Below are positions 45,447-64,000 of a stretch of 64,000 nt of DNA, piece by piece. The translations under genes and the position numbers were made by a program. Source of the stretch: an uncultured Bacteroidales bacterium (GTDB lineage: Bacteria; Bacteroidota; Bacteroidia; Bacteroidales; VadinHA17); assembly GCA_963730615.1 (NCBI GenBank), contig CAVSSR010000006.1, forward strand, positions 196,251 through 260,250, written 5' to 3'. The notes under the pieces were generated by a model. The model was not told where the DNA came from. It ran no database searches and worked only from the letters and a program-made list of their open reading frames with translations. Every line of letters begins with the position of its first letter. Position 1 is the stretch's first letter.

Positions 45447-45460
45447 TGCACCTGTATGAT

Positions 45461-49366: not shown

Positions 49367-49376
49367 CAGGTTGTAA

Positions 49377-49766: not shown

Positions 49767-50150
49767 TTACTTCCGGGGCATCCATAAGGCGCCGTTTTCC
49801 CTTACCTCTTTTACCCGAAAAGCGGCAATCTTCCGAATAAGCGTTTTGGGAAGAGGCTTGCTATAAGGGAATTGTATCGTGTCTTTGCCGGTTTTATAAT
49901 CTGTTAATTCCTTTTCGAAAGGCTGTAGGGAAGAGTGTGTTGGCATAAAATTAAGATGCGATTTGAAAGCGGAATATGAGAACAGGATTCGCTTTTCTTC
50001 AAATACCGGAGATCCCCATTTCAATGATTTTGTTGCATCCGGGGCGACTTCCTTCAGGATATCGCGTAATTCCCTGAGTTTTTCCCTCGCTTCTCTTTGG
50101 CGCAGCATTTATATATTCCTCAATTGTTTTTGGTCTGGGCTTTTCCATGG
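49767..50150 (-). CDS. DUF1801 (YdhG-like) domain protein (one frameshift near 50100)
   Basis: ATG at 50150 gives MEKPRPKTIEEYINAAPK. After a 1-nt shift it continues in ORF 49767..50108 (EAREKLRELRDILKEVAPDATKSLKWGSPVF...FPYSKPLP). Confidence 0.65.
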
Positions 50151-50306
50151 TTGATATCTGAGATGCATTTAATTATTAACAAGGTTCCCGAAAATGTTTT
50201 ATCATTTTGCGTGGTTTCGATTGACACCAAACACTGGATTTTCCCGGACGGGTGTTGTTAGTACTACCGTCTGCACGAAAACAACAATTAAGTGACCAAC
50301 CGACTC

Positions 50307-50504
50307 TTATATTAGCTTGCTCCCCGCTTCTGACATTGTGCAGTTGGCAGTGGCTTTAATTATCATTGTCTCAACCTTCACCTTGTAAGTCTCACCTAAA
50401 TGGTTAACAAGGTCATTAATTAAATGTTTTTGGCTTAGCACCAGAGCGCTCCTCAGCACCATGTTGAGGCAGTGCCCTGTAATGACTTCTGCCATGCGCT
50501 GCAT
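50307..50504 (-). CDS. 65-aa ORF in frame with the preceding membrane protein (separated by one TGA and 3 codons)
   Basis: This ORF is in the same frame as 50514..50948. It could be a C-terminal soluble domain cut off by a nonsense change, or a separate small gene. Confidence 0.3.
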   Translation of the reverse strand: MQRMAEVITGHCLNMVLRSALVLSQKHLINDLVNHLGETYKVKVETMIIKATANCTMSEAGSKLI

Positions 50505-50513
50505 CCCTTTTAT

Positions 50514-50948
50514 TCAACTCTTTAAGAACAAATTTCTGAAATACCTGATACTTGAAAGAAACAGTGCAAACCCGATGCTTAAATAAATTAAAGAAAGATA
50601 TTGCTTTTGTATGGAAGAGTGACGTAAGGTTATTCCCATGGTAACCATTATAATAATAATGATATAGCTTTTCCATGAAATAAAAGAGAAAACACATGGT
50701 TTCCCCGGTAATCGTGAAATACGTCCCAGGTTTTTATCTACAATTTTCAGGAACCCGAAATGATGAATGATTAATGCTGCAATAACTCCGGGAACACCAA
50801 ATAACCATCGATTTCCATCATAATCGTACAACCAGTGAACGGCCATTATAATCAGCATGATTCCCACACAACACCACATTGCTCCGGCAAATGCAAGCAA
50901 AACCTTTTTGGGAACTGCCGGTTTAAATCTCTTTTCAAAATCAGTCAC
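50514..50948 (-). CDS. 4-TM membrane protein of unknown function
   Basis: 144-aa ORF with four hydrophobic helices. It ends at TGA 50514-50516, which is in frame with the next ORF. Confidence 0.45.
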   Translation of the reverse strand: MTDFEKRFKPAVPKKVLLAFAGAMWCCVGIMLIIMAVHWLYDYDGNRWLFGVPGVIAALIIHHFGFLKIVDKNLGRISRLPGKPCVFSFISWKSYIIIIIMVTMGITLRHSSIQKQYLSLIYLSIGFALFLSSIRYFRNLFLKS

Positions 50949-51007
50949 CTTGTTTTTCTATTTTGTATTTACTCATTATTTTGATGGCATCGACGACTTT
51001 GCATAAA

Positions 51008-51071
51008 TGCTAAACCTGTCTCCGGCATGATTTACAATTACATCAATAAACCGGGATCTTTTATGGTTGTG
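51008..51071 (-). repeat. weak short attC-like site after the VIT transporter gene
   Basis: GCTAAAC (51008-14) ... GTTGTGT (51065-71). Pairing is limited to only 4+4 bp (AACC/GGTT, CCGG/CCGG). Confidence 0.25.
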
Positions 51072-51085
51072 TTGTGCGTAGATTT

Positions 51086-51793
51086 TTATCCAACGTTTAC
51101 GTGAAACAATAATCCGACAAGCGCAGTCAGGCCCATGGCGACAGTACCCCAGAAGGTAATTCTGATAATTGCTTTGGCTACACTTGAGCCTCCCGTTTTG
51201 GCAGCCAATGCGCCTAGTATAATAAGGAAGAAAATAGCAAAACCATAAAGATAATATTCGATGCCTTTTAACGGCAGAAAGAGAGCAACTGCAAGAGGAA
51301 GAATTCCACCGGCCGAAAATGCTGAACCTGAAGCAAGCGCTGCTTGTATTGGTTTGGCCTTACTTATTTCATTTATCCCCAGTTCATCTCTGATGTGTGC
51401 TGCCAATGCATCGGTTTCAGATAATTCTTTCGCAACTGCTAATGCTGTTTCTTTTTTAAGTCCTCTTTTTTCATAAATTTCCGCCAATCGCTGCAGTTCA
51501 ATTTTGGGCATTTCATCTAACTCTTGCTTTTCACGTTCAATATCAGCCTTTTCCACATCTGTCTGAGAACTTACAGAAACGTATTCACCTGCTGCCATTG
51601 ACAAAGCACCAGCCACCAGTCCGGCGATTGTTGCCAACACGATGGGTTCCCTTATATTACTTGCCGCAGCAATACCTATCGCCAGGCTGGATGTTGATAG
51701 AATTCCGTCATTTGCACCAAGAACTGCGGCTCTCAGCCAATTGCTTTTGTGGATGAAATGAATGTCTGAATTGTTGTCTGTTTTGGTCTTCAT
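51086..51793 (-). CDS. VIT1/CCC1 family iron/manganese transporter
   Basis: 235-aa intact ORF. It has the motif NWLRAAVLGANDGILSTSSLAIG and a central acidic helix (EREKQELDEMP), with 5 TM helices. Confidence 0.85.
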   Translation of the reverse strand: MKTKTDNNSDIHFIHKSNWLRAAVLGANDGILSTSSLAIGIAAASNIREPIVLATIAGLVAGALSMAAGEYVSVSSQTDVEKADIEREKQELDEMPKIELQRLAEIYEKRGLKKETALAVAKELSETDALAAHIRDELGINEISKAKPIQAALASGSAFSAGGILPLAVALFLPLKGIEYYLYGFAIFFLIILGALAAKTGGSSVAKAIIRITFWGTVAMGLTALVGLLFHVNVG

Positions 51794-51856
51794 CTTGAAA
51801 AGTTAAATGTATTGTATAATCCTGACTAAAGGTAACATTGTTATTAACAGAGATAA

Positions 51857-52195
51857 TTAAAAACAATCTCGAAAAAGTATGTCACTTTCCGTGCCAGCAG
51901 TTATAATTTTCTCACGACCTGCCAATCGGACACACACTGATACAAAGCCCGCAAATACGTTCTTCAACGTTGAGTTTTGCTTTGCCAGCTCTCTGCATTT
52001 TTCTCTGCATTTGAAAGCATCGAAGAATTCATCTCTGTGAATGGCGACATTCCACTTTAATCCCGTAGCTGCATTGGCAGGACATTTTAATACGCATATA
52101 TTACAGTTACCGCACTTACTTTTTTCCACTGGGTTTACATTACAGCCGGGATCCTGTTTTGGAACAAGATGATTCTCAACTATGTTTCTTACCAT
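51857..52195 (-). CDS. 4Fe-4S-motif protein fragment (resembles the C-terminal part of an epoxyqueuosine-reductase/RDH-like protein)
   Basis: 112 aa carrying CGNCNICVLKCP. There is no recognisable N-terminal domain. The repeat element upstream is truncated at the same side. Confidence 0.4.
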   Translation of the reverse strand: MVRNIVENHLVPKQDPGCNVNPVEKSKCGNCNICVLKCPANAATGLKWNVAIHRDEFFDAFKCREKCRELAKQNSTLKNVFAGFVSVCVRLAGREKIITAGTESDILFRDCF

Positions 52196-52221
52196 CCAGA
52201 ATGTTTTTAATAGCTGCTTCT

Positions 52222-52452
52222 CCCGAACGAAGTGAAAGTAGGGGTGTTCCTGAACTGGTTTTACGATGCAGGATTAGACTGTTATTACTTATTTCTCGGG
52301 AAGGCAAAAACCCCCGACAAGTCGGGGCAGGCTGTGACACCATGTGCAAGCCCCCTCGTAAGCGTGGCAGCTTATGCCCCGTTAATAATTCCCCATTTTA
52401 GCATAAGTGTGATCCTGATGGAGAAGGCAATGACATAACCGGCCAGTTAGAT
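52222..52452 (-). repeat. attC-like element truncated at its distal (GTT-box) end, after the GyrI-like gene
   Basis: It is collinear with the interior and stop-proximal arm of 61321-61635 and 62739-62983 (CGAACG-AGTGAA-G--GGGGTGTT, GCAGGATTA, GGCAAAAAC, hairpin CCCCGAC-AA-GTCGGGG at 52312-27, GAAGGCAATGAC-TA-CCG). It ends with GTTAGAT at 52446-52, which is ATCTAAC on the coding strand. The arm carrying CTAACG..CCGGCGGTAT is absent. Confidence 0.45.
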
Positions 52453-52459
52453 GCTGGTG

Positions 52460-52942
52460 TTAAATTTTAGATTGAATTGGAATCCAAATCTCTTCTTCAG
52501 AATCAAGATCATCAGGCTTATACTTTTCCCCTAATATCTCGAAATGAGGCCTACTGTCCAATAAATAGCCGGAATTAGGTATCCATGTTCCAAAAATAAA
52601 TTGAAATGTCCCGGCAGCTGCTGTTGGCAAACCTTTGTAAGGGAAAATAGCATAAAGGCCACCAGGAAGATTTAATGTCAGGAAATCATCTGGAACACTA
52701 TTAAAGTCAGCAACTTCAACAGCAGCCCATTTCTCAAAAGTCACCGTTGGATCAATACTGTCGAAGAAGCCTGACGGATAAATTTGTAAAGAATATAGAT
52801 CTGTATTGACGACATTGTGTATCACTTTTCTCAAAGGCATGAAGCTCCTCCAAAGCTCAAAAGTTTTATCATTGGAGAAGGTCATGGTCATACGTTTGCC
52901 AACCAGTTTCTTTGCAATTAATGTTTCTATACGCGGTACCAT
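52460..52942 (-). CDS. GyrI-like (AraC effector-binding/SOUL-fold) small-molecule binding protein
   Basis: 160-aa intact ORF. The pattern is IETLIAKKLVGKRMTM...LWRSFMP...GGLYAIFPYKG...FEILGEKY...EIWIPI. Confidence 0.75.
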   Translation of the reverse strand: MVPRIETLIAKKLVGKRMTMTFSNDKTFELWRSFMPLRKVIHNVVNTDLYSLQIYPSGFFDSIDPTVTFEKWAAVEVADFNSVPDDFLTLNLPGGLYAIFPYKGLPTAAAGTFQFIFGTWIPNSGYLLDSRPHFEILGEKYKPDDLDSEEEIWIPIQSKI

Positions 52943-53000
52943 TATTTTGTTTCCTGCTTCACAAGATAGACATTATGTGTTGGCATGCAAACGCTTGCAG

Positions 53001-53138
53001 CTGACAGCCCGGCAATAAAGGGAGATTGTGTTATACGATGCAAGCACCGGTCAGAGTTCTGGTACTTTAGCCAGGAAACTATTAAGGTGAAAGGAGGGTA
53101 TGCAGTGTCCCTACGAGCAGAGCAAGACAGGGGCGCAC
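53001..53138 (-). repeat. partial or degenerate repeat between the lipoprotein and GyrI-like cassettes
   Basis: CTGACAGCCCGGCAATAAAGGGAGATTGTGTTATACGATGCAAGCACCGG...CTGGTACTTTAGCCAGG is collinear with the left half of 55923-56149. I found no convincing partner arm. Confidence 0.3.
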
Positions 53139-53645
53139 CTATTGCAGTGAGTCAAATCTGCTTTTTAAAGCAATAGATAAATCAATTTTTGTATAGACTA
53201 TTTCTTTAGAATCCTTGCAGTATACTAAAGCATTAGATCCTATCCATTGTTCATATGGATCTGTTTTAATGGTTGCAAAATAAGTCCATTCTCCTTTGTT
53301 TTGGTTATCCTGATTAAGAAATTGTCCACATATTAAATATGTTTTTTCCTCATTGGGTTTTGTTAGATATTTAAATTCAACATTACGAAAACCTAAAGGA
53401 ACTGGTGGTTGATGGTCATGAAAATCTTTGGCAGCCGCATCAAGTAATAAATGAACTATAGAATCTTGTGAAGTATTTTGCGTTTCAACTGGGCTTATAC
53501 TGTCAGAGCTGCCTTTGGATGAATTAATGTTATTCTTTGACCTGGAATTACATGAGGTCAGGAATAATGAAAAAATCAGAATAGAAATAGATAATAGAAT
53601 TTTCTGCAGGTCAAATGTTTGTCTCAATTTCGATTGTTTTTTCAT
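53139..53645 (-). CDS. hypothetical lipoprotein
   Basis: 168-aa intact ORF with the lipobox LFLTSCNS followed by a Ser/Asn-rich linker. Confidence 0.45.
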   Translation of the reverse strand: MKKQSKLRQTFDLQKILLSISILIFSLFLTSCNSRSKNNINSSKGSSDSISPVETQNTSQDSIVHLLLDAAAKDFHDHQPPVPLGFRNVEFKYLTKPNEEKTYLICGQFLNQDNQNKGEWTYFATIKTDPYEQWIGSNALVYCKDSKEIVYTKIDLSIALKSRFDSLQ

Positions 53646-53750
53646 TTTACTTGATAAAAAATATTGCCTACTCTCTACAGTTTTCGGCTTCCCTGCTTTT
53701 ATTCTGCGGGTCTCTTACAGACTCATGGAACTCTGTCCGGGATTGAAGTA

Positions 53751-53817
53751 TAATGGTCCGTTAATAGAAGAAGGTTGTGTTACCCGGCTACAGTACAGGG
53801 CAGGATCCTGGTACTTA
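53751..53817 (-). repeat. partial repeat (arm homologous to the 55923 element) overlapping the DHFR-like gene stop
   Basis: GGTCCGTTAATAGAAGAAGGTTGTGTTACCCGGC (53755-88) is collinear with GGCCCGGCAATATGAAGAGGTTGTTACCCGAC (55930-61). The boxes are degenerate. Confidence 0.3.
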
Positions 53818-54408
53818 AGACCCAATAGTACCTGTCTTGACTTTTCCAGCCCGCTTGTAATTGGCAATAAAAACTCCTGTTGGCGAAACCAAACTCTCTG
53901 TCAATGCAAACGCTGCCGGAATCGCACCATTGTTAAACAACTTTTTTCCTTTACCAAGAGTCAGCGGAAAGATTTTGAGCCAGAGTTCGTCCACTAAATC
54001 ATTTTTAAGCAGCAGTTGGATAAGCTCACCGCTGCCGTGAACCTGAATGTCAGAACCTTTTGACTTTTTGAGCTTTTGGATATCTGCCAGGTTTTTAAGG
54101 AAAACTGAGTTCTTCCAATCTGACTTTTTAATGGTCCTGGACATGACGTATTTTGTTACATCATTGATACCTGGCCATACACTTTCATGCTCTGGCCAGT
54201 AACTGGCAAAAATCTCAAATGTTTTTCTGCCCAGAAGAAGGTCTGCAGGTTTCATCTGTTTTTCCATGACTTTACCAGCAACATCGTCAAAATAAGGCGT
54301 AACCCAACCGCCATATTTGAAACCGCCTGATGTATCTTCCTCTGGTCCACCAGGTGCTTGCATGACTCCATCCAATGTAATAAATGATAAAACAATTATT
54401 TTTCTCAT
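53815..54408 (-). CDS. dihydrofolate reductase-like (RibD C-terminal domain) family protein
   Basis: 197-aa intact ORF. The motifs are MRKIIVLSFITLDGVMQAPGGPEED, LLGRKTFE and IQVHGSGELIQLLL. Confidence 0.8.
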   Translation of the reverse strand: MRKIIVLSFITLDGVMQAPGGPEEDTSGGFKYGGWVTPYFDDVAGKVMEKQMKPADLLLGRKTFEIFASYWPEHESVWPGINDVTKYVMSRTIKKSDWKNSVFLKNLADIQKLKKSKGSDIQVHGSGELIQLLLKNDLVDELWLKIFPLTLGKGKKLFNNGAIPAAFALTESLVSPTGVFIANYKRAGKVKTGTIGS

Positions 54409-54543
54409 ATTATTTCACTTCCTCTTGATTCTACAACAAACTTCTTCAAGATTGGTTTTGTTACGACACAAATTTCTCTAGCAAAGATCTGGCAAAGGCA
54501 ACCGGGAATCGAGCACAATTTTTGCCTTACGAAGCAATATGAA

Positions 54544-54629
54544 ATCTAACCCCGATCCAAGAAGGATGGAGCGAAGCAACCGGCTACAAGTCGGCTGAAG
54601 TGTGTTGTCAGGAGGGGACCGGGTTTAAA
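54544..54629 (-). repeat. short attC-like palindrome (86 bp) between the cupin and DHFR-like cassettes
   Basis: ATCTAAC (54544-50) ... GTTTAAA (54623-29). TAACCCCGATCC pairs with GGACCGGGTTTA at 10 of 12 positions. Confidence 0.45.
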
Positions 54630-54642
54630 GTTACGCCTCAGA

Positions 54643-54987
54643 TTACTGTTGATTGAATATATCGACTGAGATTTCCACTGCTGTTGTCGTTCCCCTGTTC
54701 TCAAGCCAGTGTGTGGTGTTCTTATCCTCTGGCCAGCCCACTCCTGGCCCATACTCCTTAGCCACTCCATTTCGGTGGTCAGTTATCGTTCCTTGCAGAA
54801 TGTAGACAACGCCCGGCCTGTCTATATGGTTATGAATCGGGCCGATGACGCCTCCAGGTTCGAGAGTCACCAAACGCATACGAAGCAGGCGCCCTGCCAT
54901 GCCCTCTATTTCAGGGCCAAGGTCAATCGCTGCAAGATGCTTTACCGTAACACCTTTCGTCTCAGGTGCCGCTTGTTCAATACTCAT
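54643..54987 (-). CDS. cupin domain protein
   Basis: 114-aa intact ORF with cupin motifs GPIHNHIDRPGVVYILQG and GWPEDKNTTHWLEN. Confidence 0.75.
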   Translation of the reverse strand: MSIEQAAPETKGVTVKHLAAIDLGPEIEGMAGRLLRMRLVTLEPGGVIGPIHNHIDRPGVVYILQGTITDHRNGVAKEYGPGVGWPEDKNTTHWLENRGTTTAVEISVDIFNQQ

Positions 54988-55145
54988 GGCAATCTCCTTT
55001 CTTTTGTTTATTATTTATTTTATGCATACCAATTTTGCAGTTTTTCTTTTGATGACCACTACCTGGCTGAAATGAAATAGCAGAAAAGAAGATAATGTTA
55101 CTCTAAATAGGGTAGAAATTTTCCTGTTGTTGCGAAATTATAAAA

Positions 55146-55300
55146 GTTAAAGTGTGGCGGTATGTGTAGTTGCCGTCCGCTTCGGTCTTGCATGCGTTTT
55201 TGCAGTGTCACGGTGAGGGCAGGAATTCGGTTTCACGGTAATTTATCCAGATAGCCTGCAAAAACCATGACAAACAACTTACCCATATTGTCAGTTTTAG
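55146..55300 (-). repeat. attC-like element (about 155 bp, degenerate distal box) between the VOC and cupin cassettes
   Basis: The left arm GTGGCGGTATGTGTAGTTGCC is collinear with the 62739 and 61321 elements. The right arm AAAAACCATGACAAACAACTTACCCATATTGTCAGTTTTAG is collinear with 57300 and 55923 but lacks their central hairpin. GTTTTAG is at 55294-55300. Confidence 0.5.
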
Positions 55301-55311
55301 CGTTTTGTTGT

Positions 55312-55764
55312 TTATTTCAAATATTCTTCAATCACAATCTTTTTCTGTCCCATCATTACTTTAAATGAGTTTGGTCGATTCATTAGCTCATCTAGATTTT
55401 TGGGTAACACTTGCCACCGAAGTCCATATTTATCTATGCACCAACCGCATTGAGATTCTTCACCATCCTGAGTAAAATAGTTCCAGTATTTATCAATTTC
55501 ATTTTGATCCTCACAATTAATCATAAATGATATTGCGTCATTCAATGGATGATGTTCTTCAGCAGTACTCATAAGAGAATATTTTTGCCCAAAAATATTT
55601 ACCACACACATTTCTGTTATTCCACTGGGTGTCTCCCCTAGAGGTATTATCTGTCCATGCTGAAAGTCTTTGCCAAAAATGTTTTTGTAATATTCAATTA
55701 TTTTTGAAATATTACCTCCGTCTTCACAAAACCAAAGGTTTGGAACTATTTTGTTCTGTAACAT
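55312..55764 (-). CDS. VOC/glyoxalase-fold protein (PhnB / 3-demethylubiquinone-9 3-methyltransferase-domain type)
   Basis: 150-aa intact ORF. The motifs are IVPNLWF, EIDKYWNYF, CGWCIDKYGLRWQV and the C-terminal KIVIEEYLK. Confidence 0.75.
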   Translation of the reverse strand: MLQNKIVPNLWFCEDGGNISKIIEYYKNIFGKDFQHGQIIPLGETPSGITEMCVVNIFGQKYSLMSTAEEHHPLNDAISFMINCEDQNEIDKYWNYFTQDGEESQCGWCIDKYGLRWQVLPKNLDELMNRPNSFKVMMGQKKIVIEEYLK

Positions 55765-55922
55765 ATTTTCAAATACTAAGGTTGTCTAATTACTATATCT
55801 TTTTGTCTATCCATCGTTATAACATATATAAGTTAGATTTTGTTCTAATATCGACTAATTGTCACTTTTTTAAATCGTTTCCTTACGTATTTAACTGATT
55901 GTCAAATCAGATGATCAATGAA

Positions 55923-56149
55923 CGCTAACGGCCCGGCAATATGAAGAGGTTGTTACCCGACGCAAGCACATGGCATAGTCCTGGTTCTTTGGCCACAAAG
56001 CTGTCACGGTGCAGGATTTATTTTGCGGGCAGGTGCGGGCGTTCGGTTGCAAGTTTCAGCAGGACTTGTCATGGGAGCAGGGTTTTATAAAAACCATGAC
56101 AACTTGTCCCGCAAGGCGGGAAACAACTTACCCAAATAGTCCGTTTTAT
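55923..56149 (-). repeat. attC-like element (227 bp) between the TIM-barrel and VOC cassettes
   Basis: CGCTAAC (55923-29) ... GTTTTAT (56143-49). GAGGTTGTTACCCG pairs with CGGGAAACAACTT. The right arm is nearly identical to that of 57300-57474, including the hairpin at 56108-20. Confidence 0.55.
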
Positions 56150-56191
56150 GCCAATGTGCGGATTCTAATTTGATATATTGTCCTGATTGAA

Positions 56192-57274
56192 TTATTTAGC
56201 TATGAAACAGGGGATTACATCTTCTGTGAAATATGGCTCCTGACATACCCAGAACATATAATTTACTTTTAAAAAATCTTTAGCAAAAGCATGGAGTACC
56301 GGCACAATGTTATTCCGATTTATTACAACATCGTTGTTTCCTGTTTCTTCAATGTAGTTGCCATCCTGAACTGCAATCCCAAGAGGTACTGAAAATTTCC
56401 CTTCATGCATCATTGCCAATGCATGATTTAGCTGTTCCTTTTTTCTAATCAGTAAATCAGGCGCACCCAGGCCAACCCCAATTTCCTGTCCGTATTGATA
56501 AATAGAATGCAAATACTCTTTATCGCTGGTCCGAAGCCATCCCCCGGGGACAAAGTTGGCGTACTGCATTGTAACTGACCGTGGGAATGCTTTCTTAAGA
56601 GCGAGCATGTTGATCTTCAAGCTTTCAGTATAGCTCTCCTGCGTGAAAGTAGAATCAATTTTACTTATATCTTCTATTGCGGTTTCCTGTAAATTTATTC
56701 CTTCCACTTTCCCGTCAAATTCTTTTCCCAGAGCTTTCATCAGCAGTGCGAATCGCTCCTGTACTTTCGGGTTCCATCTTTTTGCCACCCACCCGGAAAT
56801 TTCTCCATTGCCATTAAATTGCGGAACTGCACCCTTATCGTATTCATCGGTTAGAAGATATCCAGGTAATCCAACATATTTGGGGCTAAATGATGCATCC
56901 TGCAATTGGATGAACAATTTTTTGCCATGAGATAAAAGGTATTTATAATCCTCCTGGATAATAGAAAAATCATATTTCCCTTTTTCAGGTTCAAGCTGTT
57001 TCCAGGAATACATTATCTGAGCGCCCACAAATCTTGGAATATTCAAGAACGGATGGTCTTGTATAAGTTCCCTGTCCCGGGCAAAATAGACAAAATGTTT
57101 AATGCTGTCAGGTTCCAGAGGACAAGCAGCACTCAAATATTTCTTATATGCATTAGCGTACCGTTCGGAGTATTTTTCATTTTGCCCTGGCATAGTGAGT
57201 GAAATGAGAAGCCCGAAAAGTACTAACGTTGATATTTTCTTATTTCTATCCATAATGTTTTTGAAGGTAATCAT
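56192..57274 (-). CDS. secreted TIM-barrel glycosidase-like protein (function uncertain)
   Basis: 360-aa intact ORF with a signal peptide. YSWKQLEPEKGKYDFS is the classic N-terminal motif of GH42/GH35-type barrels. I cannot place the rest. Confidence 0.4.
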   Translation of the reverse strand: MITFKNIMDRNKKISTLVLFGLLISLTMPGQNEKYSERYANAYKKYLSAACPLEPDSIKHFVYFARDRELIQDHPFLNIPRFVGAQIMYSWKQLEPEKGKYDFSIIQEDYKYLLSHGKKLFIQLQDASFSPKYVGLPGYLLTDEYDKGAVPQFNGNGEISGWVAKRWNPKVQERFALLMKALGKEFDGKVEGINLQETAIEDISKIDSTFTQESYTESLKINMLALKKAFPRSVTMQYANFVPGGWLRTSDKEYLHSIYQYGQEIGVGLGAPDLLIRKKEQLNHALAMMHEGKFSVPLGIAVQDGNYIEETGNNDVVINRNNIVPVLHAFAKDFLKVNYMFWVCQEPYFTEDVIPCFIAK

Positions 57275-57299
57275 TTTTCAGGACGAGAGAGAGCATTTG

Positions 57300-57474
57300 G
57301 CATAACGGTCCGGCGGTACGGGTCAGTTGCCTTGTATTGGGGTGGTATGCGTTTTTGCAGGCAAACTGCGATGCACAAATGTGCTTTTCTTTACTAAGTT
57401 ATCGCGTTGGTAAAAACCATGACAACTTGTCCCGCAAGGCGGGAAACAACTTACCCATATTGTCCGTGTTAGTT
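57300..57474 (-). repeat. attC-like element (175 bp) between the PNPOx and TIM-barrel cassettes
   Basis: GCATAAC (57300-06) ... GTTAGTT (57468-74). TACGGGTCAGTTG pairs with CAACTTACCCATA. A central hairpin CCCGC-AAG-GCGGG lies at 57431-43. Confidence 0.6.
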
Positions 57475-57492
57475 GCTGCGTTTATTAATTTT

Positions 57493-58024
57493 TTAAAATG
57501 AGATGGTTGGCGCTTTGAAAGTATTAGGATCATTATTTAGTCCATGTTTATAGTTTATGATCTCAATGGATTTGGGAATGATTTTAATAAGTACAAATTT
57601 ATCTTGCCAGCCTTGTATGCCATTCCAATAGTCTCGTTTCATTTTAATAAGTAATTCCCTATTGTCTATAACTGATGCATGATCCGTTTATATTGACATA
57701 TCCTTTTGCAGTAAGATGGTTTGCGAAATAAACACAGACTTTTGGATTGTTTGTAATTTCTCTGACTTTACGACTTGTTCTTGAAGTAGCAAACCAGATA
57801 ACAAAGTCATCCTTAACAGGAAAAGGATTTATCGTACGAATTTGGGGTTGTCCTAAGGAGTCTATGGTGACAAGTCCACAATAGGTTGTTTCATTAATTA
57901 TTTCGTGAGCAGCAAGAAAAATGGTATCTCTATTTACAGAGGATTGTCCATTCAATTCAGAATAACAGGAACTGGATGTTGAAACAAGGACAGAGAGCAC
58001 GAATAAGACAAATAGGTTTTTCAT
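57493..58024 (-). CDS. pyridoxamine 5'-phosphate oxidase-like (general stress protein 26 type) FMN-binding split-barrel protein (one frameshift near 57670)
   Basis: ORF 57659..58024 has a signal-like N-terminus plus CGLVTIDSLGQPQIRTINPF...VIWFATSRTSRKVREITNNPKVCVYF. The C-terminus is in another frame (MKRDYWNGIQGWQDKFVLIKIIPKSIEIINY), with a stop at 57493. Confidence 0.65.
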
Positions 58025-58134
58025 AGAGGTTGATTTAAATAATGAATTATCTTTTATATGATCCCCAGGAAAGGATTTACCCTATAAAAAATGATATTTT
58101 ATTCAAGTCAGTAGTCCCGGTTGTTGCACATGGC

Positions 58135-58262
58135 AACTAACTTCCGCCGGTATGCGCAGTTGCCGCTTCTGTGTGATTACTTGTTGTGTTATCCGAAAGG
58201 TAGCTAAATGAACAGCATTAGCAACTCCACGGCCCGGCAATTGCGTATACCGGCTGTTGTGG
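58135..58262 (-). repeat. attC-like imperfect palindrome (128 bp) between the TPM and PNPOx cassettes
   Basis: AACTAAC (58135-41) ... GTTGTGG (58256-62). Positions 58146-58165 pair with 58235-58254 over 20 positions, with two G-T mismatches. Confidence 0.7.
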
Positions 58263-58275
58263 GCAGTGCTTTTTT

Positions 58276-58752
58276 TTACTTCCATTCTTTAATACATTCA
58301 TCCATACCAACCTTTATGCCGTCGAAGTACTTTTCTTCCCTGAATAGAGGTATCATGCAAGAATTTACGATTTTCTTACAAATTTCATCTTTGAAAGTTT
58401 TATCAGGTCCATATCCGGTTGACAATGCTGTTTCACTCAAATTTTTACTGACAAATATAACTAAGCCATTATCTTTCCCCTCTTTGCCCACTTCATGTAT
58501 ACTTCCAAAATCAGCAGCATATTGTATCGCTGTCTCAAACTCACCAATATCTTTTGAAGTTACAATCATAATCTCATTTGTCGATTTTTTTTCATAGTCT
58601 GAAATAATGGAGTTTAGATATCTCTCCTGGCTTTTGGTTAATATTTCCTCATAATCGTAAATCCACGAGATTTTTTTGTTGACTTCATTATTCTGTCCGC
58701 ATGAAAATGCGATTGCTGCAAATAAAGACACTAATACAATATTCAATTTCAT
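58276..58752 (-). CDS. TPM (YgcG/TLP18.3-type) domain lipoprotein
   Basis: ORF 58276..58845; the likely start is MKLNIVLVSLFAAIAFSCGQ at 58752. The pattern is DYEEILTKSQERYLNSIISDYEKKSTNEIMIVT...DNGLVIFVS...GYG. Confidence 0.7.
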   Translation of the reverse strand: MKLNIVLVSLFAAIAFSCGQNNEVNKKISWIYDYEEILTKSQERYLNSIISDYEKKSTNEIMIVTSKDIGEFETAIQYAADFGSIHEVGKEGKDNGLVIFVSKNLSETALSTGYGPDKTFKDEICKKIVNSCMIPLFREEKYFDGIKVGMDECIKEWK

Positions 58753-58780
58753 ATTTTTTAATTTTAGATAGTTTCTTTTT

Positions 58781-58860
58781 GCCACACGGCGCTTTACAGT
58801 CTCCTTTAGCCAGAAAGTTCTCGTGGCACAGAAAAGCAATGACATATACCGATGTTGAAC
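58781..58860 (-). repeat. half attC-like element (stop-proximal arm only) after the GH78 gene
   Basis: 58797-58860 is collinear with 62919-62983 (CTTTAG-CA-AAAGTTCTCG-GGCACAGAA--CAATGAC-TATACCGA...GTT). It ends with GTTGAAC (58854-60), which is GTTCAAC on the coding strand. I found no partner arm. Confidence 0.4.
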
Positions 58861-58883
58861 GGTGTGTTATTTTTTTAGTTTAT

Positions 58884-61262
58884 TTAATCAATCTTATTTG
58901 TTCCGCCTTGCAAGTGTCTTTGCTCTCCATTCCAGATGAAAACTCCGTCTAAGTTAATTGGTAAAGTAATTTCACCACTAAGATGATCCTTATCTTTTTG
59001 TAATTTAATGTGAATAGAACCAAGCTTATGCGGCATTGTTGCATCAATATTTTTCAAACTTCCAAGATTAGGCTCTATCCTTATAGATTTAAAGCCCGGT
59101 GAGTCAGATTTAATACCACTTACTAATGATAAGAAGTAATAAACTGGCGAAGCACTCCAGGCGTGACAATCAGAACGTGCAGGACCTGGAATTTCTGCAA
59201 AAGTGGTCAAACCTGCATCTAACATTTGTTTCCAGGGAATTAGTGATTCGGTAAATTGGTTAGCCTGCCCAACTTTTTCAAGTGCTTCGAATAAATAAAA
59301 TTTGAAATATAATGTACATTGTGCCAACTCTTTGTCATTGAGAAGCTTATTAATTATTTTGGTTTTATCGGCTGTTTCAGGAAATGTATTGGTTAAAACA
59401 GCTAAAACGTTGGCATGTTGACTGAAAGTACTCCTTTCGGGGGAATCGGCAATTAATCCTCTGTTAGAATCGTAACATCTTTGATAAACTGATTTTTTAA
59501 TTTTATCCGCCAGATTTCTATACTCGACAGCAATGTCATGCATCCTGTATGCTTCGAAGACCTCTGATGCTTTTTCCAAAGTGTAAACATACTGTAAACT
59601 TAGTATAGAGGAATTGCCATTCTGCGCAGCCGGCGGGCCACCGTTTTCCCACCCTTTTGAATCAATCCAGTCTACAAAATTCCACCATTCAACAGGACCT
59701 AACATACCAGTTGAGTCAATATGGTTTCCAAACCAATTGAGTGTTTCCTGCATACCGGGAATCATTGATTTAATAAAAATAGAATCGCTGTTCAGCATCC
59801 AATAATCATAAATCATTGTAACCCAGACTAATGAAAAGGTCGGAATAATTTGGACCTGATTACATGGGAATCTGCTTTGTGTTATACCAATAGGTAATTG
59901 TGAAGCATGCAAAGCAGATATTGCATTTTTGGTCAATCTGGAATCTCCGGAAACATAGGTTGAAACCAATGCCTGAATTCTCGCATCACCAATATATTGA
60001 AGTTGTTCGTAATATGGGCAATCAAAAAAAGTTTCATTTGCACATAAGCGCTGTGTCCGCCAGCCAACCTTCCAAATATCGTCAAAAAGAGAATTGTCGC
60101 AAGTAAATGATGCCTTCTCTTCCAAAGGGTATGCAGTAAAAATGCTGAAAACATCGTTAACTGCAAGTGGCTCTTCTTTTGTTTCTATTTCCAGTTCAAC
60201 ATATCTGAAAGTACGCCAGAATAGTGGTTGGAATATACGATTATTACCTCCGTCACAAATAATAACATCAGAGGTACCTAGTATCTGTTTGTCTTCAATA
60301 TCATTCCGGTTGCCTTTGTTTCCAACACTGTCAAATAAACTCTCAGCATAAGTAAGTTTTATTAAGCTGTTTCTTCCTTTTGAAAAATTAATAACAGGAT
60401 AGGCAGTTGTCAGCACGCTTTGGTCAATAAGTATTTTTATTTTACTGTTTGGCGAGATTATGACCGGATTAGTACCTTTCAGGAATTCTTCAGTAATTAT
60501 GTTTGCGTTGGAACGACGAATTCTGGAAAATCGTTGTACTTTTTCTTCCATTAAAGGTATTTCTCTTTGTGAAAGTAAATGCAATGAAGTGTTTCCATAT
60601 TCTCCCATACAACCAACAGGTTTACCAGTTTCAACTTCCTGAGCATGCTTCCAGCCAGATGTATTGAAATCCTTATCCATCCAGTTCCATGGATGTTTTT
60701 CACAATCAAACTCCTCGCCGGCCCCCGCAACATAGTATTGATTCATAATTACGGGAATGGGTTTATATGCCGTGTCTTTCATGACAACCCAGCTTGTATC
60801 TGAATTAAGAATATTTTCATCCTTCGTATTTCCCTGGATCATAAATCCTGTTTGCCCTGAAATCTGGGCTAAAGGACGATATTCGGCAAAATTCCATACA
60901 ATAGAAGATATAATATTCCTGCCAGAATGAAGATATGGGGAAATGTCAATACTTTCAAAATTCCATTTTAACAGATAACTTCTGGCAGGGCCATTACAAA
61001 CGTATTCACCATTTATATATAGCTTATACCGATTGTCTGCCGACACATGAATAATAAATTTGTCAGGTTTTGTATTAATTGAAATTTCTTTTCTGAATAA
61101 ATAAACTCCATATTCCGAATTTGTTTTATCAGGATAAGAAATCCATTTTGCAGTCCAGGGTCTGCAAAGCAATTCGGGATTAATTTCTGTTACTTGCTGA
61201 GCAAAAAGCTTTGTGCTAACCAAAAACAGAACTATCAGAAGTGGTTTAAAACAACGTTTCAT
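58884..61262 (-). CDS. glycoside hydrolase family 78-like (alpha-L-rhamnosidase-type six-hairpin glycosidase), secreted
   Basis: Intact ORF 58884..61292; the likely start is MKRCFKPLLIVLFLVSTKLFAQQ at 61262. It has a rhamnosidase N-domain pattern (YKLYINGEYVCNGPARS...DISPYLHSGRNIIS) and a C-terminal catalytic-domain pattern (DCHAWSASPVYYFLSLVSGIKSDSPGFKSIRIEPNLGSL). Confidence 0.65.
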   Translation of the reverse strand: MKRCFKPLLIVLFLVSTKLFAQQVTEINPELLCRPWTAKWISYPDKTNSEYGVYLFRKEISINTKPDKFIIHVSADNRYKLYINGEYVCNGPARSYLLKWNFESIDISPYLHSGRNIISSIVWNFAEYRPLAQISGQTGFMIQGNTKDENILNSDTSWVVMKDTAYKPIPVIMNQYYVAGAGEEFDCEKHPWNWMDKDFNTSGWKHAQEVETGKPVGCMGEYGNTSLHLLSQREIPLMEEKVQRFSRIRRSNANIITEEFLKGTNPVIISPNSKIKILIDQSVLTTAYPVINFSKGRNSLIKLTYAESLFDSVGNKGNRNDIEDKQILGTSDVIICDGGNNRIFQPLFWRTFRYVELEIETKEEPLAVNDVFSIFTAYPLEEKASFTCDNSLFDDIWKVGWRTQRLCANETFFDCPYYEQLQYIGDARIQALVSTYVSGDSRLTKNAISALHASQLPIGITQSRFPCNQVQIIPTFSLVWVTMIYDYWMLNSDSIFIKSMIPGMQETLNWFGNHIDSTGMLGPVEWWNFVDWIDSKGWENGGPPAAQNGNSSILSLQYVYTLEKASEVFEAYRMHDIAVEYRNLADKIKKSVYQRCYDSNRGLIADSPERSTFSQHANVLAVLTNTFPETADKTKIINKLLNDKELAQCTLYFKFYLFEALEKVGQANQFTESLIPWKQMLDAGLTTFAEIPGPARSDCHAWSASPVYYFLSLVSGIKSDSPGFKSIRIEPNLGSLKNIDATMPHKLGSIHIKLQKDKDHLSGEITLPINLDGVFIWNGEQRHLQGGTNKID

Positions 61263-61320
61263 ATTGTATTGTTTGTTAGTTAAATAATTCATTGTTTGTA
61301 TTTACATGCCGTACAACGGC

Positions 61321-61635
61321 CCGGCGGTATGGGTCAGTTGCCGCAGCATCGCGGTGGCACGCCTGCCCCGCATCGAACGCAGTGAAGGTCGGGGTGTTTT
61401 TGCACGCGTGGTGCGGTGAAGGATTATGCAGTTAGTAGTTTATTTTCGCGTTGGTAAAAACCGTGACACCAGGAGGGAGTGCCCCGCGGGAGCGGGGCCG
61501 GCCGGCTGGTTTTTGCCCGGCGGCTTTAGCCGCTAAGCCGGGCCGATAAAGCACCAACTGGTTTTTGGTGTTCCGGTCTGGCGGATCGGCGCGCAAAAAC
61601 CAGTCGCGGCAATTGCATATACCGACCTGTTAGGG
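61321..61635 (-). repeat. attC-like element, expanded form (315 bp), between the hemerythrin and GH78 cassettes
   Basis: GTACAAC (61321-27) ... GTTAGGG (61629-35). The left arm GGCGGTATGGGTCAGTTGCCGC pairs with the right arm GCGGCAATTGCATATACCGACC. The interior is collinear with element 62739-62983 plus an extra GC-rich nested-hairpin block. Confidence 0.6.
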
Positions 61636-61759
61636 GTAGTGATGTATTCTTTCACACTTATCATTCATCAGCAATCTTACCATCAGATTTATTATTATGC
61701 CAGCCAAACCAGCTATTGGGATAAAAAAAGTTTGTCGCCGAACGCTAGCTGGGAATGCT

Positions 61760-62395
61760 TTACTCCAGCGTTGGAATACGCCTTATCAACTCGGCCCAGT
61801 CATTGCCGATTGCCTTTTGAATAAGCAATTTTGCTTGATCGAATGCCGGAGGAGGCATCAGCATTTGCCAAATAAGGGTCATGTTCTCACGGTCATTGTG
61901 GTCAATCAAGGGATATAACCAGGCAACAAGCTCCGGAAAGCGTTCCTGTGGTATTTGATTTGCCATGATACCGACTGCCTTACCCTGATCAGCCATGGAT
62001 ACGCGTTCTCTCATTAAACGATACAAATGTGCATCTTCCTTTCCTAAGTGTATATCGAGATGGAACTTGAATGCTGCTGTTGCGCGTGCCGTTGCCAATA
62101 CATCATTTGCAGAAACTGCGGTATTCAGGGCATTGAATGCAGCATCCAGACCACGGTGATCTCTCTCATATGCCTCTGCGACCAAGGGCGCAACGATTTC
62201 AACCGTCGGGAAGACGGACAATTCCTCGCCATGAGCATGCCAGGCAAGCACTTCATTAAAGAAGCGGAAGCGCTCTATTGTCGGTATGAATTCATTATTC
62301 CCGCGTGCAGATTCGAGTGCTGCTAAGTCAATCCGGGTCATGTCGAGTCGGAAAGCATTGTGAAATGCCATAATTGCATCAAGTGGTTCTGCCAT
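61760..62395 (-). CDS. hemerythrin (HHE cation-binding) domain protein
   Basis: 211-aa intact ORF with two hemerythrin-like half-sites: AFHNAFRLDM...WHAHGEEL and FKFHLDIHLGKEDAHLY. Confidence 0.75.
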   Translation of the reverse strand: MAEPLDAIMAFHNAFRLDMTRIDLAALESARGNNEFIPTIERFRFFNEVLAWHAHGEELSVFPTVEIVAPLVAEAYERDHRGLDAAFNALNTAVSANDVLATARATAAFKFHLDIHLGKEDAHLYRLMRERVSMADQGKAVGIMANQIPQERFPELVAWLYPLIDHNDRENMTLIWQMLMPPPAFDQAKLLIQKAIGNDWAELIRRIPTLE

Positions 62396-62548
62396 TTTAT
62401 GATCTCCTTTTACTTTAAATTTATATTAATATTTATGATAGATTGATCTTGTAAAGATATACAAGGGAGTTGTTTCGGTTTTTATCAAAGTTATTATCAC
62501 CTCTTTCGACTTTCTTATTTTTTCCTACCCGCTTACCAAAAGCTTTGC

Positions 62549-62564
62549 TGACGTGAATACGTCA
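62549..62564. promoter_or_regulatory. perfect 6-4-6 palindrome TGACGT-GAAT-ACGTCA in the 343-nt ORF-free leader of the hemerythrin gene (candidate operator)
   Basis: The palindrome is read directly from the sequence and lies about 155-170 nt upstream of the hemerythrin ATG (62395). No cognate regulator is identified. Confidence 0.25.
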
Positions 62565-62738
62565 TAAGTGTAACAGCATAGCACTGTAATTCTGGCAAAG
62601 CCTTCAATGAATTTGTTAATCCTTTTATTCTAAAGCGTTTGATCCTTTATAGGCTCTCTATCTTTTAATAATCTTCCGTTAAAGACCTCGTAATCCGACA
62701 AAATAATAAGCGTACATTGCCGATTCTTATATCATTAC

Positions 62739-62983
62739 CCCTAACGTTCCGGCGGTATGTGCATGTTGCCGCAGCATCGCGGTGGCACGTGTTTTTGCAC
62801 TCGTGGTGCGGTGCAGGATTATGATGTTGTCTGTCTATTCTCGCGTTGACAAAAACCGTGACACCAGGAGGGAGTTCCCCGGTGGTGCCGGGGGCAGCCT
62901 GTGACGCCAGCCACAATACGGTCCTCTTTAGTCATAAAGTTCTCGCGGCACAGAAGGCAATGACCTATACCGACCTGTTAGGC
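62739..62983 (-). repeat. attC-like element (245 bp) between higA and the hemerythrin cassette
   Basis: CCCTAAC (62739-45) ... GTTAGGC (62977-83). The higA stop codon lies inside the box. The arms CCGGCGGTAT / ATACCGACC and TTGCC / GGCAA pair. A central hairpin CCCCGG-TGGTG-CCGGGG lies at 62887-62904. Confidence 0.6.
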
Positions 62984-63277
62984 TGCGTGTTGTTTTGCTT
63001 TCTTAATGCTCTTAAACTCGTCCTTTTTGGTCTTCTTTTCTTCTTCTATATCGTAATCATTCTGAAGTCCGAGCCAGAATTTTGCAGAATTACCAAAATA
63101 GTAACTGAGCCTGAGTGCAGTATCAGCGGTTATTCTTCTTGCACCCTTTATTATCTCAGAAGTTCTTGTCTGAGGAATTCCAATGTCCTTTGATAATCTA
63201 TAAGCAGAAATACTCATAGGCTTCAGGAATTCTTCAAGTAGTACTTCTCCGGGGTGTATGTTTTGTAAAGTTTCCAT
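62978..63277 (-). CDS. higA: HigA-family antitoxin (XRE helix-turn-helix)
   Basis: 99-aa intact ORF. IHPGEVLLEEFLKPMSISAYRLSKDIGIPQTRTSEIIKGARRITADTALRLSYYFGNSAKFWLGLQNDYD is the canonical HigA/VapI pattern. Its TAA lies inside the GCCTAAC box of the next repeat. Confidence 0.85.
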   Translation of the reverse strand: METLQNIHPGEVLLEEFLKPMSISAYRLSKDIGIPQTRTSEIIKGARRITADTALRLSYYFGNSAKFWLGLQNDYDIEEEKKTKKDEFKSIKKAKQHAA

Positions 63278-63282
63278 GTCTC

Positions 63283-63567
63283 TTATTTATGATAGTCAAT
63301 AATTGTAACCTCACTTGCTAGTCCATCATCCCAATTAAATGTTATTCTCCATTGGTCATTAATGCGAATGCTATAAAGGTTATTCATTTTACCGCTCAAC
63401 TTCTCTAACTTATTGGAAGGAGGGACTCTGAGATCATTAAGGTTTTGAGAGTTATTTAACATTCTTAGTTTTCTCCTGCCAATCATTTGGACCTCTGGAG
63501 GCATGTTTTTTACTCGTTCGCCATGCCATATTTTCTCTGTCCCTTTTGACCCAAATGAAGTAATCAT
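63283..63567 (-). CDS. higB: HigB-type toxin (RelE/ParE superfamily, plasmid maintenance system killer)
   Basis: 94-aa intact ORF, placed toxin-first 5 nt upstream of higA. The motifs are IGRRKLRMLNNSQNLNDLRVPPSNKLEKLSG and YSIRINDQWRITF. Confidence 0.85.
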   Translation of the reverse strand: MITSFGSKGTEKIWHGERVKNMPPEVQMIGRRKLRMLNNSQNLNDLRVPPSNKLEKLSGKMNNLYSIRINDQWRITFNWDDGLASEVTIIDYHK

Positions 63568-63642
63568 ATTACGTCTAGCGTTACTAACGGCAAAAGTAAG
63601 TATTTATTATCTAATATGCAAGCGATTTTAGTTTGACATGCA

Positions 63643-63770
63643 GCCTAACGGCTGCGTGTATGAAACGTTTGGCATTTCGAAGCACTTTCCTATCAGCTAC
63701 AACTACTTTAAATGAGCTATACCGCTTGATAAAGCACTGACTGCCAAATGTTTTATACACGATGTTGTGT
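63643..63770 (-). repeat. attC-like imperfect palindrome (128 bp) upstream of the higBA cassette
   Basis: On the plus strand GCCTAAC (63643-49) ... GTTGTGT (63764-70). On the coding strand these are ACACAAC ... GTTAGGC. Positions 63655-63674 pair with 63742-63761 over 20 consecutive positions, with only two G-T mismatches. There is an asymmetric internal loop between the box and the stem. Confidence 0.7.
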
Positions 63771-64000
63771 CGTCGTGCATTTTTTTAATCCATGTCAATA
63801 CTTTCCTTTAATACAACCGTTTTGTTCAATCGCTGTTTTACCAACTTTATATTAGAACATAAAAATATAGCCGGTGTTATTCATAAAATTTACGAATGAC
63901 TCTAACGACTAATCAATAGGTTTAATGAAATTCATCAACTCTCTGTCGTGGTTATATACAATTCTGCATTCATTATCAAAATACATTGTAGCACCGTTTT

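Follow-up and report, generated by a model that had tools for sequence, protein, structure and literature searches.

A chromosomal cassette array of probable integron-like type in an uncultured Bacteroidales genome

Genes and repeated sites at the right end of the window

The window analyzed here, a 64,000-nt stretch of contig CAVSSR010000006.1 from an uncultured Bacteroidales bacterium, ends on its right in an array of small genes separated by related, structured sites that resemble the attC sites of integrons. All unprefixed positions below refer to this window. A previous interpretation made from the letters alone (the sequence-only reading) had described the region from about 51.0 kb to the right edge as an integron-type gene-cassette array, with any integrase lying outside the window. 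A full-length profile search confines the site family to 52.2-63.8 kb, on the minus strand throughout, where eight sites with both end boxes (one of them doubtful) and four half or eroded sites lie between small genes. Each site starts behind a stop codon with a box that ends in AAC (R'') and finishes with a box that begins with GTT (R'). From nine 5' halves and nine 3' halves of the window sites, which read nnCTAAC-AGGTCGGTATAnG..ATTGCC and GGCAAC....CATACCGCCGnnC-GTTAnnn, respectively, we also built half-site profiles. These gave significant matches only at 52.4-63.8 kb on the minus strand and none elsewhere in the window, and the left 46 kb contained no site matches in the profile searches. 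No Rfam family matched the sites or the cassettes without an open reading frame (ORF) that are described below.

The features of the array and its distal surroundings are listed from the right edge leftward. Fractions give the matching bases between an R'' box and the R' box of the site preceding its cassette (upstream R') or the R' box of the same site (own R').

63771-64000, minus: tail of a further cassette, the rest of which lies past the right edge; contains a partial ORF with its end at 63909 (sequence reading; the array continues to the right)
63643-63770, minus: attC-like site 1, 128 nt, R'' ACACAAC, R' GTTAGGC (profile; 20-bp bottom-strand stem, z = -3.6)
62978-63567, minus: higBA toxin-antitoxin cassette (higB 63283-63567, higA 62978-63277), cassette start TTAGGC at 63648; Pfam HigB-like_toxin 1.5e-20 and HTH_26 at 22.5 bits, barely over the 22-bit cut-off
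62739-62983, minus: attC-like site 2, 245 nt, the family prototype, R'' GCCTAAC, R' GTTAGGG (nhmmer 240-270 bits); 7/7 against upstream R', 6/7 against own R'
61760-62395, minus: hemerythrin-domain cassette ORF (Pfam PF01814)
61311-61635, minus: attC-like site 3, 325 nt with a longer inner module, R'' CCCTAAC, R' GTTGTAC (profile); 7/7 against upstream R', 3/7 against own R'
58884-61292, minus: GH78 alpha-L-rhamnosidase-like cassette ORF, 802 aa (Pfam Bac_rhamnosid6H 8e-30)
58781-58860, minus: attC-like site 4, 5' half (R''/L'') only (nhmmer covers profile positions 7-83 only); the R'' of the rhamnosidase cassette, GTTCAAC, is 6/7 against upstream R'
58276-58752, minus: TPM-domain ORF, fused to the preceding cassette via truncated site 4 (Pfam TPM_phosphatase 4e-27)
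58135-58262, minus: attC-like site 5, 128 nt, R'' CCACAAC, R' GTTAGTT (profile; 20-bp bottom-strand stem, z = -4.25)
57500-58024, minus: PNPOx-like cassette ORF with an in-frame stop in the assembly (Pfam PNPOx_N)
57300-57474, minus: attC-like site 6, 175 nt, R'' AACTAAC, R' GTTATGC (profile); 7/7 against upstream R'
56192-57274, minus: 360-aa cassette ORF with a weak glycoside-hydrolase-like match and an N-terminal signal-like segment
55923-56151, minus: attC-like site 7, 229 nt, R'' GCATAAA, R' GTTAGCG (profile); 6/7 against upstream R', with the C of AAC altered
55312-55764, minus: 3-dmu-9_3-mt (VOC-like) cassette ORF (Pfam PF06983 1.5e-22)
55144-55302, minus: attC-like site 8, R'' CGCTAAA, R' degenerate (profile); 6/7 against upstream R'
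54643-54987, minus: Cupin_2 cassette ORF (Pfam)
54544-54629, minus: doubtful 86-nt site, TTTAAAC to GTTAGAT (no profile match; folds like its shuffles, z ~0)
53815-54408, minus: RibD_C (DHFR-like) cassette ORF (Pfam)
53748-53820, minus: eroded 3' half of an attC-like site (3'-half profile, E = 0.021)
53139-53645, minus: lipoprotein-like cassette ORF without a family match
52998-53130, minus: eroded attC-like site, R' GTCAGCT (profile, E = 0.0026)
52460-52942, minus: Cass2/GyrI-like ("integron-associated effector binding protein") cassette ORF (Pfam PF14526 8e-17)
52220-52452, minus: attC-like site 12, R'' ATCTAAC, without a 3' end (nhmmer profile positions 4-194, 64.6 bits)
42600-52219, minus: distal zone of small co-oriented genes without recognizable sites (Pfam)
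46729-46747, minus: remnant of an attC 5' end, ACATAAC AGGTCAGTATAG, right behind the SIMPL stop codon (weak profile match, E = 1.7)
41541-42593, minus: rsgA, a housekeeping gene at the distal boundary of the array (Pfam RsgA_GTPase 4e-48)

All twelve boxes quoted by the sequence-only reading are present at the minus-strand positions that it gave, and its account of the cassettes as co-oriented small ORFs of unrelated functions, with a higBA pair among them, is borne out; the ORFs are promoter-distal and include one for a Cass2 protein. The minus strand carries nearly all genes from 21 kb to the right window edge and every gene in the array region. As had also been noted, the ORFs are more AT-rich than both the repeats and the left 38 kb: pooled GC content is 38.6% in the cassette ORFs versus 52.3% in the sites and 47.6% in the left 38 kb, with 39.7% for the 51-64 kb region. 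The further claim that every gap has the same layout was too broad. The shared boxes and sites are real, but the box at 58860 belongs to a 5' half only, the site at 52452 lacks its 3' end, the 3' halves near 53.8 and 53.1 kb are eroded, R' at 55.1 kb is degenerate, the 86-nt element at 54629-54544 matches no profile, and nothing recognizable as a site lies at 51.0-52.2 kb.

Cassette-like genes extend left as far as ~42.6 kb, the start of rsgA. The distal zone encodes a Fer4 fragment, VIT1, DUF1801, Cdd1, OmdA, DUF4256, DUF6855, SIMPL, HI0933-like, DAGK, DUF3795 and PA14 proteins, of which SIMPL and Cdd1 are true cassettes between attC sites in other genomes (loci L011, L022, L031 and L123 of the set described below). 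Exact-match look-ups with three proteins of the array (HigB, hemerythrin and rhamnosidase) returned no recorded entry. Sites are intact near the right window edge, where four edge-proximal copies are full length, and become truncated toward rsgA before they disappear; because of this gradient, we interpret the distal part as a probable fossil zone of fixed former cassettes. The window, we conclude, covers the distal end of a sedentary chromosomal cassette array over a length of 12 to 21 kb.

A folded site family with integron-type junctions

The same repeats occur in other genomes. A pattern with 20 specified bases, taken from the 3' half of the site and run against a single genome for each species, returned 30 stretches, nearly all from uncultured Bacteroidales metagenome-assembled genomes (MAGs) and none from the genome of the window, which a metagenome scan with HigB did not recover either. 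A profile of the 245-nt site identified 160 copies in 27 sources (the window and 26 loci). In these MAGs the ~245-nt family fills arrays of tens of kb, with copies 0.5-1.5 kb apart and in a single orientation per locus. We found no copies outside arrays in the window or the related loci, and no target-site duplications. Located family sites have a median length of 243 nt (range 220-365), those of the window span 128-325 nt, and the long variant represented by site 3 recurs at L031:14329-14624. The boxes conform to the consensus nSCTAAC / GTTAGSn (155 and 162 boxes). Among cassettes of at least 330 nt, the longest ORF is in sense in 97 of 100; its stop codon falls mostly 1-20 nt from the R'' end, and ten ORFs use the TAA of CTAAC itself. 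The higBA cassette shares 93.5% nucleotide identity with a cassette in another MAG (L013/L023), where its neighbors are different.

Two variations on this theme deserve mention. ORF-less cassettes of ~280-310 nt account for 22 of 122 cassettes and are found in L001, L002, L010 and other loci (for example, L010:818-1097); their ends are conserved, TTAGGGCTAATAGCGGC ... GCCGCTACAATCCCTAAC, G6/C6 tracts lie in their interior, and many copies recur within a single array. Additionally, L008 (a Cytophagales MAG), L026 (a Phycisphaerales MAG), L021 and L024 contain an exact 28-nt match to the L'-R' end of the site and no 245-nt site by nhmmer. These four may represent shorter site variants, chance matches or mis-binned contigs.

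In integrons, crossover occurs between the G and the TT of the second box, and each cassette starts with TTNNNN. The first box of a cassette, NNNNAAC, should therefore complement the second box of the upstream site. For this comparison we took the four R'' bases that vary, in a set of 114 cassettes drawn from the window and 29 related loci (30 loci in all). R'' was perfectly complementary to the upstream R' in 104 cassettes, compared to only 9 with perfect complementarity to their own R', which is the chance level (8.8% for random pairs). Where the two comparisons disagreed, the upstream match was better 98 times and the own match 3 times. The window follows the same rule: three of its cassettes (higBA, hemerythrin and PNPOx) match the upstream R' at 7/7 positions, and another three do so at 6/7. 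This pattern is the signature of integron crossover at G|TT, and it is not predicted by any dispersed-repeat or terminator model. What the sequence-only reading observed is real and exceeds chance by far.

An alignment of 81 distinct full-length family sites yielded a consensus structure with an outer L''/L' stem, a first hairpin, a short GC hairpin and a long stem, GGTGTCACGGTTTTTGC / GCAAAAAC..GCCACC; the common 245-nt form carries three inner hairpins. Compensatory changes occur in 11 pairs, including all 9 of helix 2, the first hairpin, in which one pair is found as UA 39 times, CG 28 times and GC 6 times. Standard pairs fill 97.8% of cells versus 93.0% after column shuffling, a value that none of 500 shuffles reached, and sliding the partners reduces pairing to 37-52% of cells. 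We also folded each site as single-stranded DNA on both strands, using DNA parameters and with R' restored to its excised-circle form. The bottom strand was the more stable in all 81 sites (means of -55.7 vs -49.0 kcal/mol). In the two 128-nt window sites, uninterrupted 20-bp stems form on the bottom strand (z = -3.6 and -4.25) and the top strands contain A.C mismatches. An asymmetric unpaired spacer, 6 nt on one side and 4 nt on the other, separates the R and L stems.

Recombinase, insertion site and synteny in related arrays

No integrase gene is present anywhere in the 64-kb window. In related loci, searched by tblastn with an IntI1 sequence that served only as a probe, a tyrosine recombinase accompanies the array. 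L004 and L029 each encode a 404-aa enzyme upstream of the array and in the same orientation. Three further settings, which came from look-ups of genomic context, are L031, L033-L040 (one species recovered from many metagenomes) and L041, whose flanks are unrelated. The array lies downstream of the recombinase gene in all settings examined, and the linkage extends to four related genomic settings and six gene copies.

This array recombinase has many homologues, whose annotation goes no further than XerD or tyrosine recombinase. One homologue, considered as a candidate for the enzyme of the window's own genome, was rejected because it stems from a read-derived catalogue. The protein contains Phage_integrase and Phage_int_SAM_4 domains. 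Against the NCBIfam integron-integrase model TIGR02249 it scores 198 bits, short of the cut-off of 265, and the alignment is broken in two, with the central part of the profile, which holds the IntI insertion, left uncovered; its best model, XerA/integron-integrase, is also below cut-off. Among solved structures, archaeal XerA aligns in one piece and VchIntIA in two (138-303 with 12-177, and 330-401 with 246-317), which leaves ~42 residues of the IntI-specific domain (VchIntIA 177-246) without a counterpart. An AlphaFold model (mean predicted local distance difference test score, pLDDT, of 73) places an 18-residue loop where this domain would sit and predicts a confident N-terminal alpha/beta domain (residues 1-70) followed by a disordered linker. 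XerA and VchIntIA rank about equally in a fold search. The array recombinase is thus a member of the Xer/IntI clade that does not pass the test by which an integron integrase is defined. Across ~0.3 Mb of array-bearing loci, we detected no IntI-like gene.

A conserved attI-like motif, ...TACCTTTAGTACACATATAAACAAG|TTA, lies 70-170 nt past the recombinase stop codon in L004, L029 and L041, and beyond an intervening Exo_endo_phos gene in L031 and L033-L040. When compared with the TTNNNN that follows the motif, the R'' of the first cassette matches at 7/7 positions in L029, L031 and L041 and at 6/7 in L004. The L033-L040 strains, which encode an identical recombinase protein, have contigs that are identical up to the G of GTT. 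Past this G they diverge into GTTATCT, GTTATGG, GTTACCG or GTTAGCG and carry different first cassettes: DUF6933; DUF6567 followed by a LinB-like nucleotidyltransferase; Vsr; or a 212-aa ORF. Such strain-specific divergence after the G has the appearance of insertion at an attI site.

Two cassettes close to this junction are of interest in their own right. The LinB-like nucleotidyltransferase gene (L034:13543-14313; Adenyl_transf/LinB-like_C), the second cassette after attI in one strain, likely confers lincosamide resistance. The first cassette behind attI in L004, a locus of the close relative, has a short site of ~115 nt (L004:2619-2732) that lacks the first two hairpins and keeps the R and L boxes and the long GTCAC..TTTTTGC/GCAAAAA stem; because of this variant, we regard the inner hairpins as optional modules.

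The contigs of the closest RsgA relatives (96% and 94% identity) carry these arrays as well. On contig_1120 of MFD00905.bin.1.160, a recombinase gene (488,851-490,065), family sites (490-526 kb) and rsgA (551,691) lie on one strand; in the relative with 96% RsgA identity, whose rsgA orthologue occupies the same position as that of the window, the recombinase is ~61 kb upstream of rsgA. The 10 kb before rsgA on contig_1120 likewise contain no family sites, and the relative's stretch before rsgA is syntenic with window positions 35.8-48.7 kb, with 82-96% nucleotide identity and cassette-sized indels. Upstream of this syntenic zone the cassette content differs between the two genomes. In the close relative, the SIMPL, Cdd1 and PNPOx cassettes are found elsewhere in the array; the PNPOx-like ORF of the window has 85% nucleotide identity to an intact gene there (L122:399-997). 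On the basis of this synteny, the recombinase and attI of the present genome can plausibly be placed rightward of 64000, at a distance of probably tens of kb. The sequence-only reading had placed intI and attI on that side, a position that the relative makes plausible, although the enzyme encoded in related arrays is not an IntI.

The attI motif, like the recombinase, was not found in the 64-kb window. At 37552-39720 on the minus strand, the window carries DUF4180 and Exo_endo_phos genes that are 58% and 62% identical to genes flanking the recombinase in L031. A 144-aa ORF lies between them, the recombinase and attI motif are absent there, and tblastn of this interval detected neither a recombinase nor a remnant of one.

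Interpretation and relation to known systems

We interpret these features as a recombinase-driven cassette array of integron-like type, to which we assign a probability of about 0.8. According to this model, a cassette unit would consist of TTNNNN, usually one sense ORF, NNNNAAC, the folded site and a final G. A tyrosine recombinase would release cassettes as circles and insert them, cutting the second box between its G and its TT. Insertion would mainly target a fixed attI-like site, ...TACCTTTAGTACACATATAAACAAG|TTA, a short distance downstream of its gene. Recombination probably acts on the bottom strand of the attC-like site in its folded form, in which the outer R and L stems would flank the asymmetric unpaired spacer. 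As judged from the relatives, the enzyme would be the co-oriented 404-aa recombinase of the Xer/IntI clade, with its extra N-terminal alpha/beta domain and without the IntI domain. The proposal of an integron-type array with its integrase off the right edge therefore survives in its mechanism and placement, on the strength of the boxes, the folding, the G|TT junctions, the cargo and, for the placement, the synteny; what does not survive is the expectation of an IntI, and the sites, at ~245 nt, are also unusual for an integron.

Several observations weigh against this interpretation. The IntI-specific additional domain is held necessary for IntI activity, and the related recombinase is without it. 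That this enzyme acts on folded sites is inferred from its linkage in four settings, three of which share synteny. Both the recombinase and the attI motif are absent from 64 kb of this genome, and 4 of the 12 window sites are truncated or eroded; given this damage, the stretch in the window may be largely inactive. No clear extrahelical bases were found within the L stem, the bottom-strand L stems being uninterrupted. Finally, one inner helix (alignment columns 130-134 with 215-219, window ~62865-62780) relies on conserved sense-strand G.U pairs, which become A.C mismatches on the bottom strand. This hints at an additional role in the transcript, and such an RNA-level role is left unexplained by the cassette-array model.

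Whether the array still recombines is the main point on which a competing account can be built. With a third of its sites damaged, the activity of the part in the window is uncertain, and the array might be a dead relic in which recombination has ceased and the cassettes have become ordinary fixed chromosomal genes, a fossil akin to a cluster of attC sites lacking an integron integrase (CALIN). Truncated or eroded sites at 58.8, 55.1, 53.8, 53.1 and 52.4 kb, the lack of any below 52.2 kb, the synteny of the distal genes with the relative and the absence of a recombinase from the window all fit this account. However, the edge-proximal sites are full length, three cassettes keep 7/7 junctions, the cassette content upstream of the syntenic zone is unlike that of the relative, and the 93.5% identity of higBA to a copy elsewhere implies recent exchange; we therefore consider a relic unlikely, though it is the rival to be taken most seriously. 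A canonical integron, with a true IntI elsewhere in the genome or beyond 64000 and the Xer-like recombinase a mere syntenic neighbor, is less probable still. In its favor, box consensus and junctions follow classical attC sites, integrons typically carry cassettes such as Cass2 and toxin-antitoxin pairs, and reviews count Bacteroidota among the phyla with integrons. Yet it is the Xer-like recombinase that is directly followed by the insertion site in four settings (within 70-170 nt in L004, L029 and L041), no IntI-like gene was detected in ~0.3 Mb of array loci, and IntegronFinder surveys report almost no integrons in Bacteroidetes; in IntegronFinder 2.0, Salinibacter ruber has the only complete integron in Bacteroidetes proper.

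Dispersed elements without a role in mobility, such as repetitive extragenic palindromes (REP) and miniature inverted-repeat transposable elements (MITE), or intergenic RNA structures that act as terminators or stabilizers, are scarcely credible as an explanation. The sites are indeed GC-rich, structured and intergenic, and one helix has the sense-strand G.U pairs noted above. In contrast to REP or MITE sequences, family copies are confined to arrays, share one orientation within each locus, are missing from the left 46 kb and from all positions outside arrays in the window and loci, and show no target-site duplications; nor can the junction rule and the strain-variable cassettes at attI arise from terminators or MITEs.

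The array has much in common with sedentary chromosomal integrons such as the Vibrio cholerae superintegron. Both have large promoter-distal arrays with family-similar attC sites, boxes of the RYYYAAC/GTTRRRY type, G|TT crossover, a bottom strand that folds more stably, and cassettes of the toxin-antitoxin and Cass2 kinds; attI beside the integrase gene and variable first cassettes are seen in the related loci. A recombinase co-oriented with the cassettes recalls the "inverted integrase" group (Treponema and others). Unlike these integrons, the relatives of the window encode a recombinase without the IntI-specific domain (198 vs 265 bits) and with an extra N-terminal domain, and the family sites show no clear extrahelical bases and are about twice the usual attC length of ~57-141 nt. 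Taken alone, the window resembles a CALIN, an IntegronFinder category, in having at least two attC-like sites and no integrase. It differs in that the relative's synteny indicates a recombinase and attI upstream on the same contig, and for this reason the missing integrase is most likely an effect of the window edge.

Of the systems described so far, the closest is that of rAID-1 clusters (for recombinase-associated acquired interbacterial defence) in gut Bacteroidales. These are defined by a 5' XerD-like recombinase at least 44% identical to BF9343_RS08045, followed by at least two co-directional genes with a GC content of at most 41% and by repetitive intergenic sequences, and orphan immunity genes predominate in their cargo (Ross et al. 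2019, bioRxiv 10.1101/471110; PMC12247911). Reported arrays can exceed 16 kb and hold up to 31 genes; their biogenesis was stated to be unknown, and a recombination mechanism was not described (bioRxiv 10.1101/471110; PMC12247911). The window belongs to the same order, its cassette ORFs are co-directional with a pooled GC content under the 41% limit, and its intergenic sequences are repetitive. In contrast, its cargo is general (enzymes, lipoproteins and a toxin-antitoxin pair), Pfam finds no immunity genes in the window, the hosts of such arrays are environmental MAGs, and the arrays reach tens of kb. A single Tdi1 cassette is present in the related locus L031.

A search of plasmid proteins returned mostly unrelated Xer-like genes and one useful record, Parabacteroides distasonis "plasmid 2" (NZ_OY725747.1, locus L124). 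At 8719-15900 it carries a rAID-type cluster in which an integrase gene is followed by Tdi1 and SMI1/KNR4 immunity genes, with intergenic sites of ~57 nt and an attI-like junction ~45 nt past the integrase stop. At 7 junctions, the 9-10 nt after A|TT recur as a reverse complement ending in TAAC right behind the next ORF, and three control occurrences of the same hexamer within genes, as well as an intergenic one at the array end, have no such partner. Over 279 aa, the recombinases of L124 and of the arrays share 42% identity, and that of L124 has no IntI insertion. The two systems differ in that L124 has ~57-nt sites with A|TT crossover, and the window family has sites of mostly ~245 nt with three inner hairpins and G|TT crossover. 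From the L124 junctions and recombinase, we infer that the window array and rAID-type clusters share one logic.

We rate the window array as a relative of rAID-1 from the environment, with long sites, general cargo and recombination signatures of integron grade. We would give even odds to a broader proposal, that it belongs to a second integron lineage of Bacteroidales, defined by a Xer-like integrase with its own N-terminal domain and no IntI domain, by folded attC-like sites of 57 to >300 nt and by N|TT crossover. Such a lineage would underlie both the 40-60 kb environmental arrays and the gut rAID-1 islands and would largely escape integron-finding software. The findings bear on the definition of an integron, with integron-grade junctions, folded sites and a strain-variable attI found alongside a recombinase that has no IntI domain, and they do so in one of the most abundant bacterial orders, in a phylum where surveys report almost no integrons. 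For rAID-1, they turn the question of assembly into a specific hypothesis that can be tested, namely that attI and attC recombine at N|TT. Large mobile gene pools of Bacteroidales in soil, sediment and digesters, including the LinB-like resistance cassette, may escape current integron counts.

The window contains a few further features of note. The GTTAGAT box at 54550-54544, behind the cupin gene, is complementary at 7/7 positions to ATCTAAC at 52452-52446, behind Cass2, with three ORFs and their eroded sites in between; this may reflect a fused composite cassette or chance. A DUF805b RNA motif at 53665-53697 on the minus strand (Rfam 36.2 bits vs a gathering threshold of 35.6, E = 1.4e-6) lies inside a cassette, upstream of the family-less lipoprotein ORF at 53139-53645. 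Frameshifts or stop codons split genes at 34.7-37.5 kb, 42616-44604, 45461-46656, 48038-48695 and 57500-58024, namely beta-lactamase-like, amidohydrolase, PA14, HI0933-like, DUF4256 and PNPOx-like genes, whose orthologues are intact in the relative L122. We considered decay of old cassettes as the cause and rejected it because genes outside the array are split as well; for the same reason, the interruptions are probably long-read assembly indel errors and not pseudogenes.

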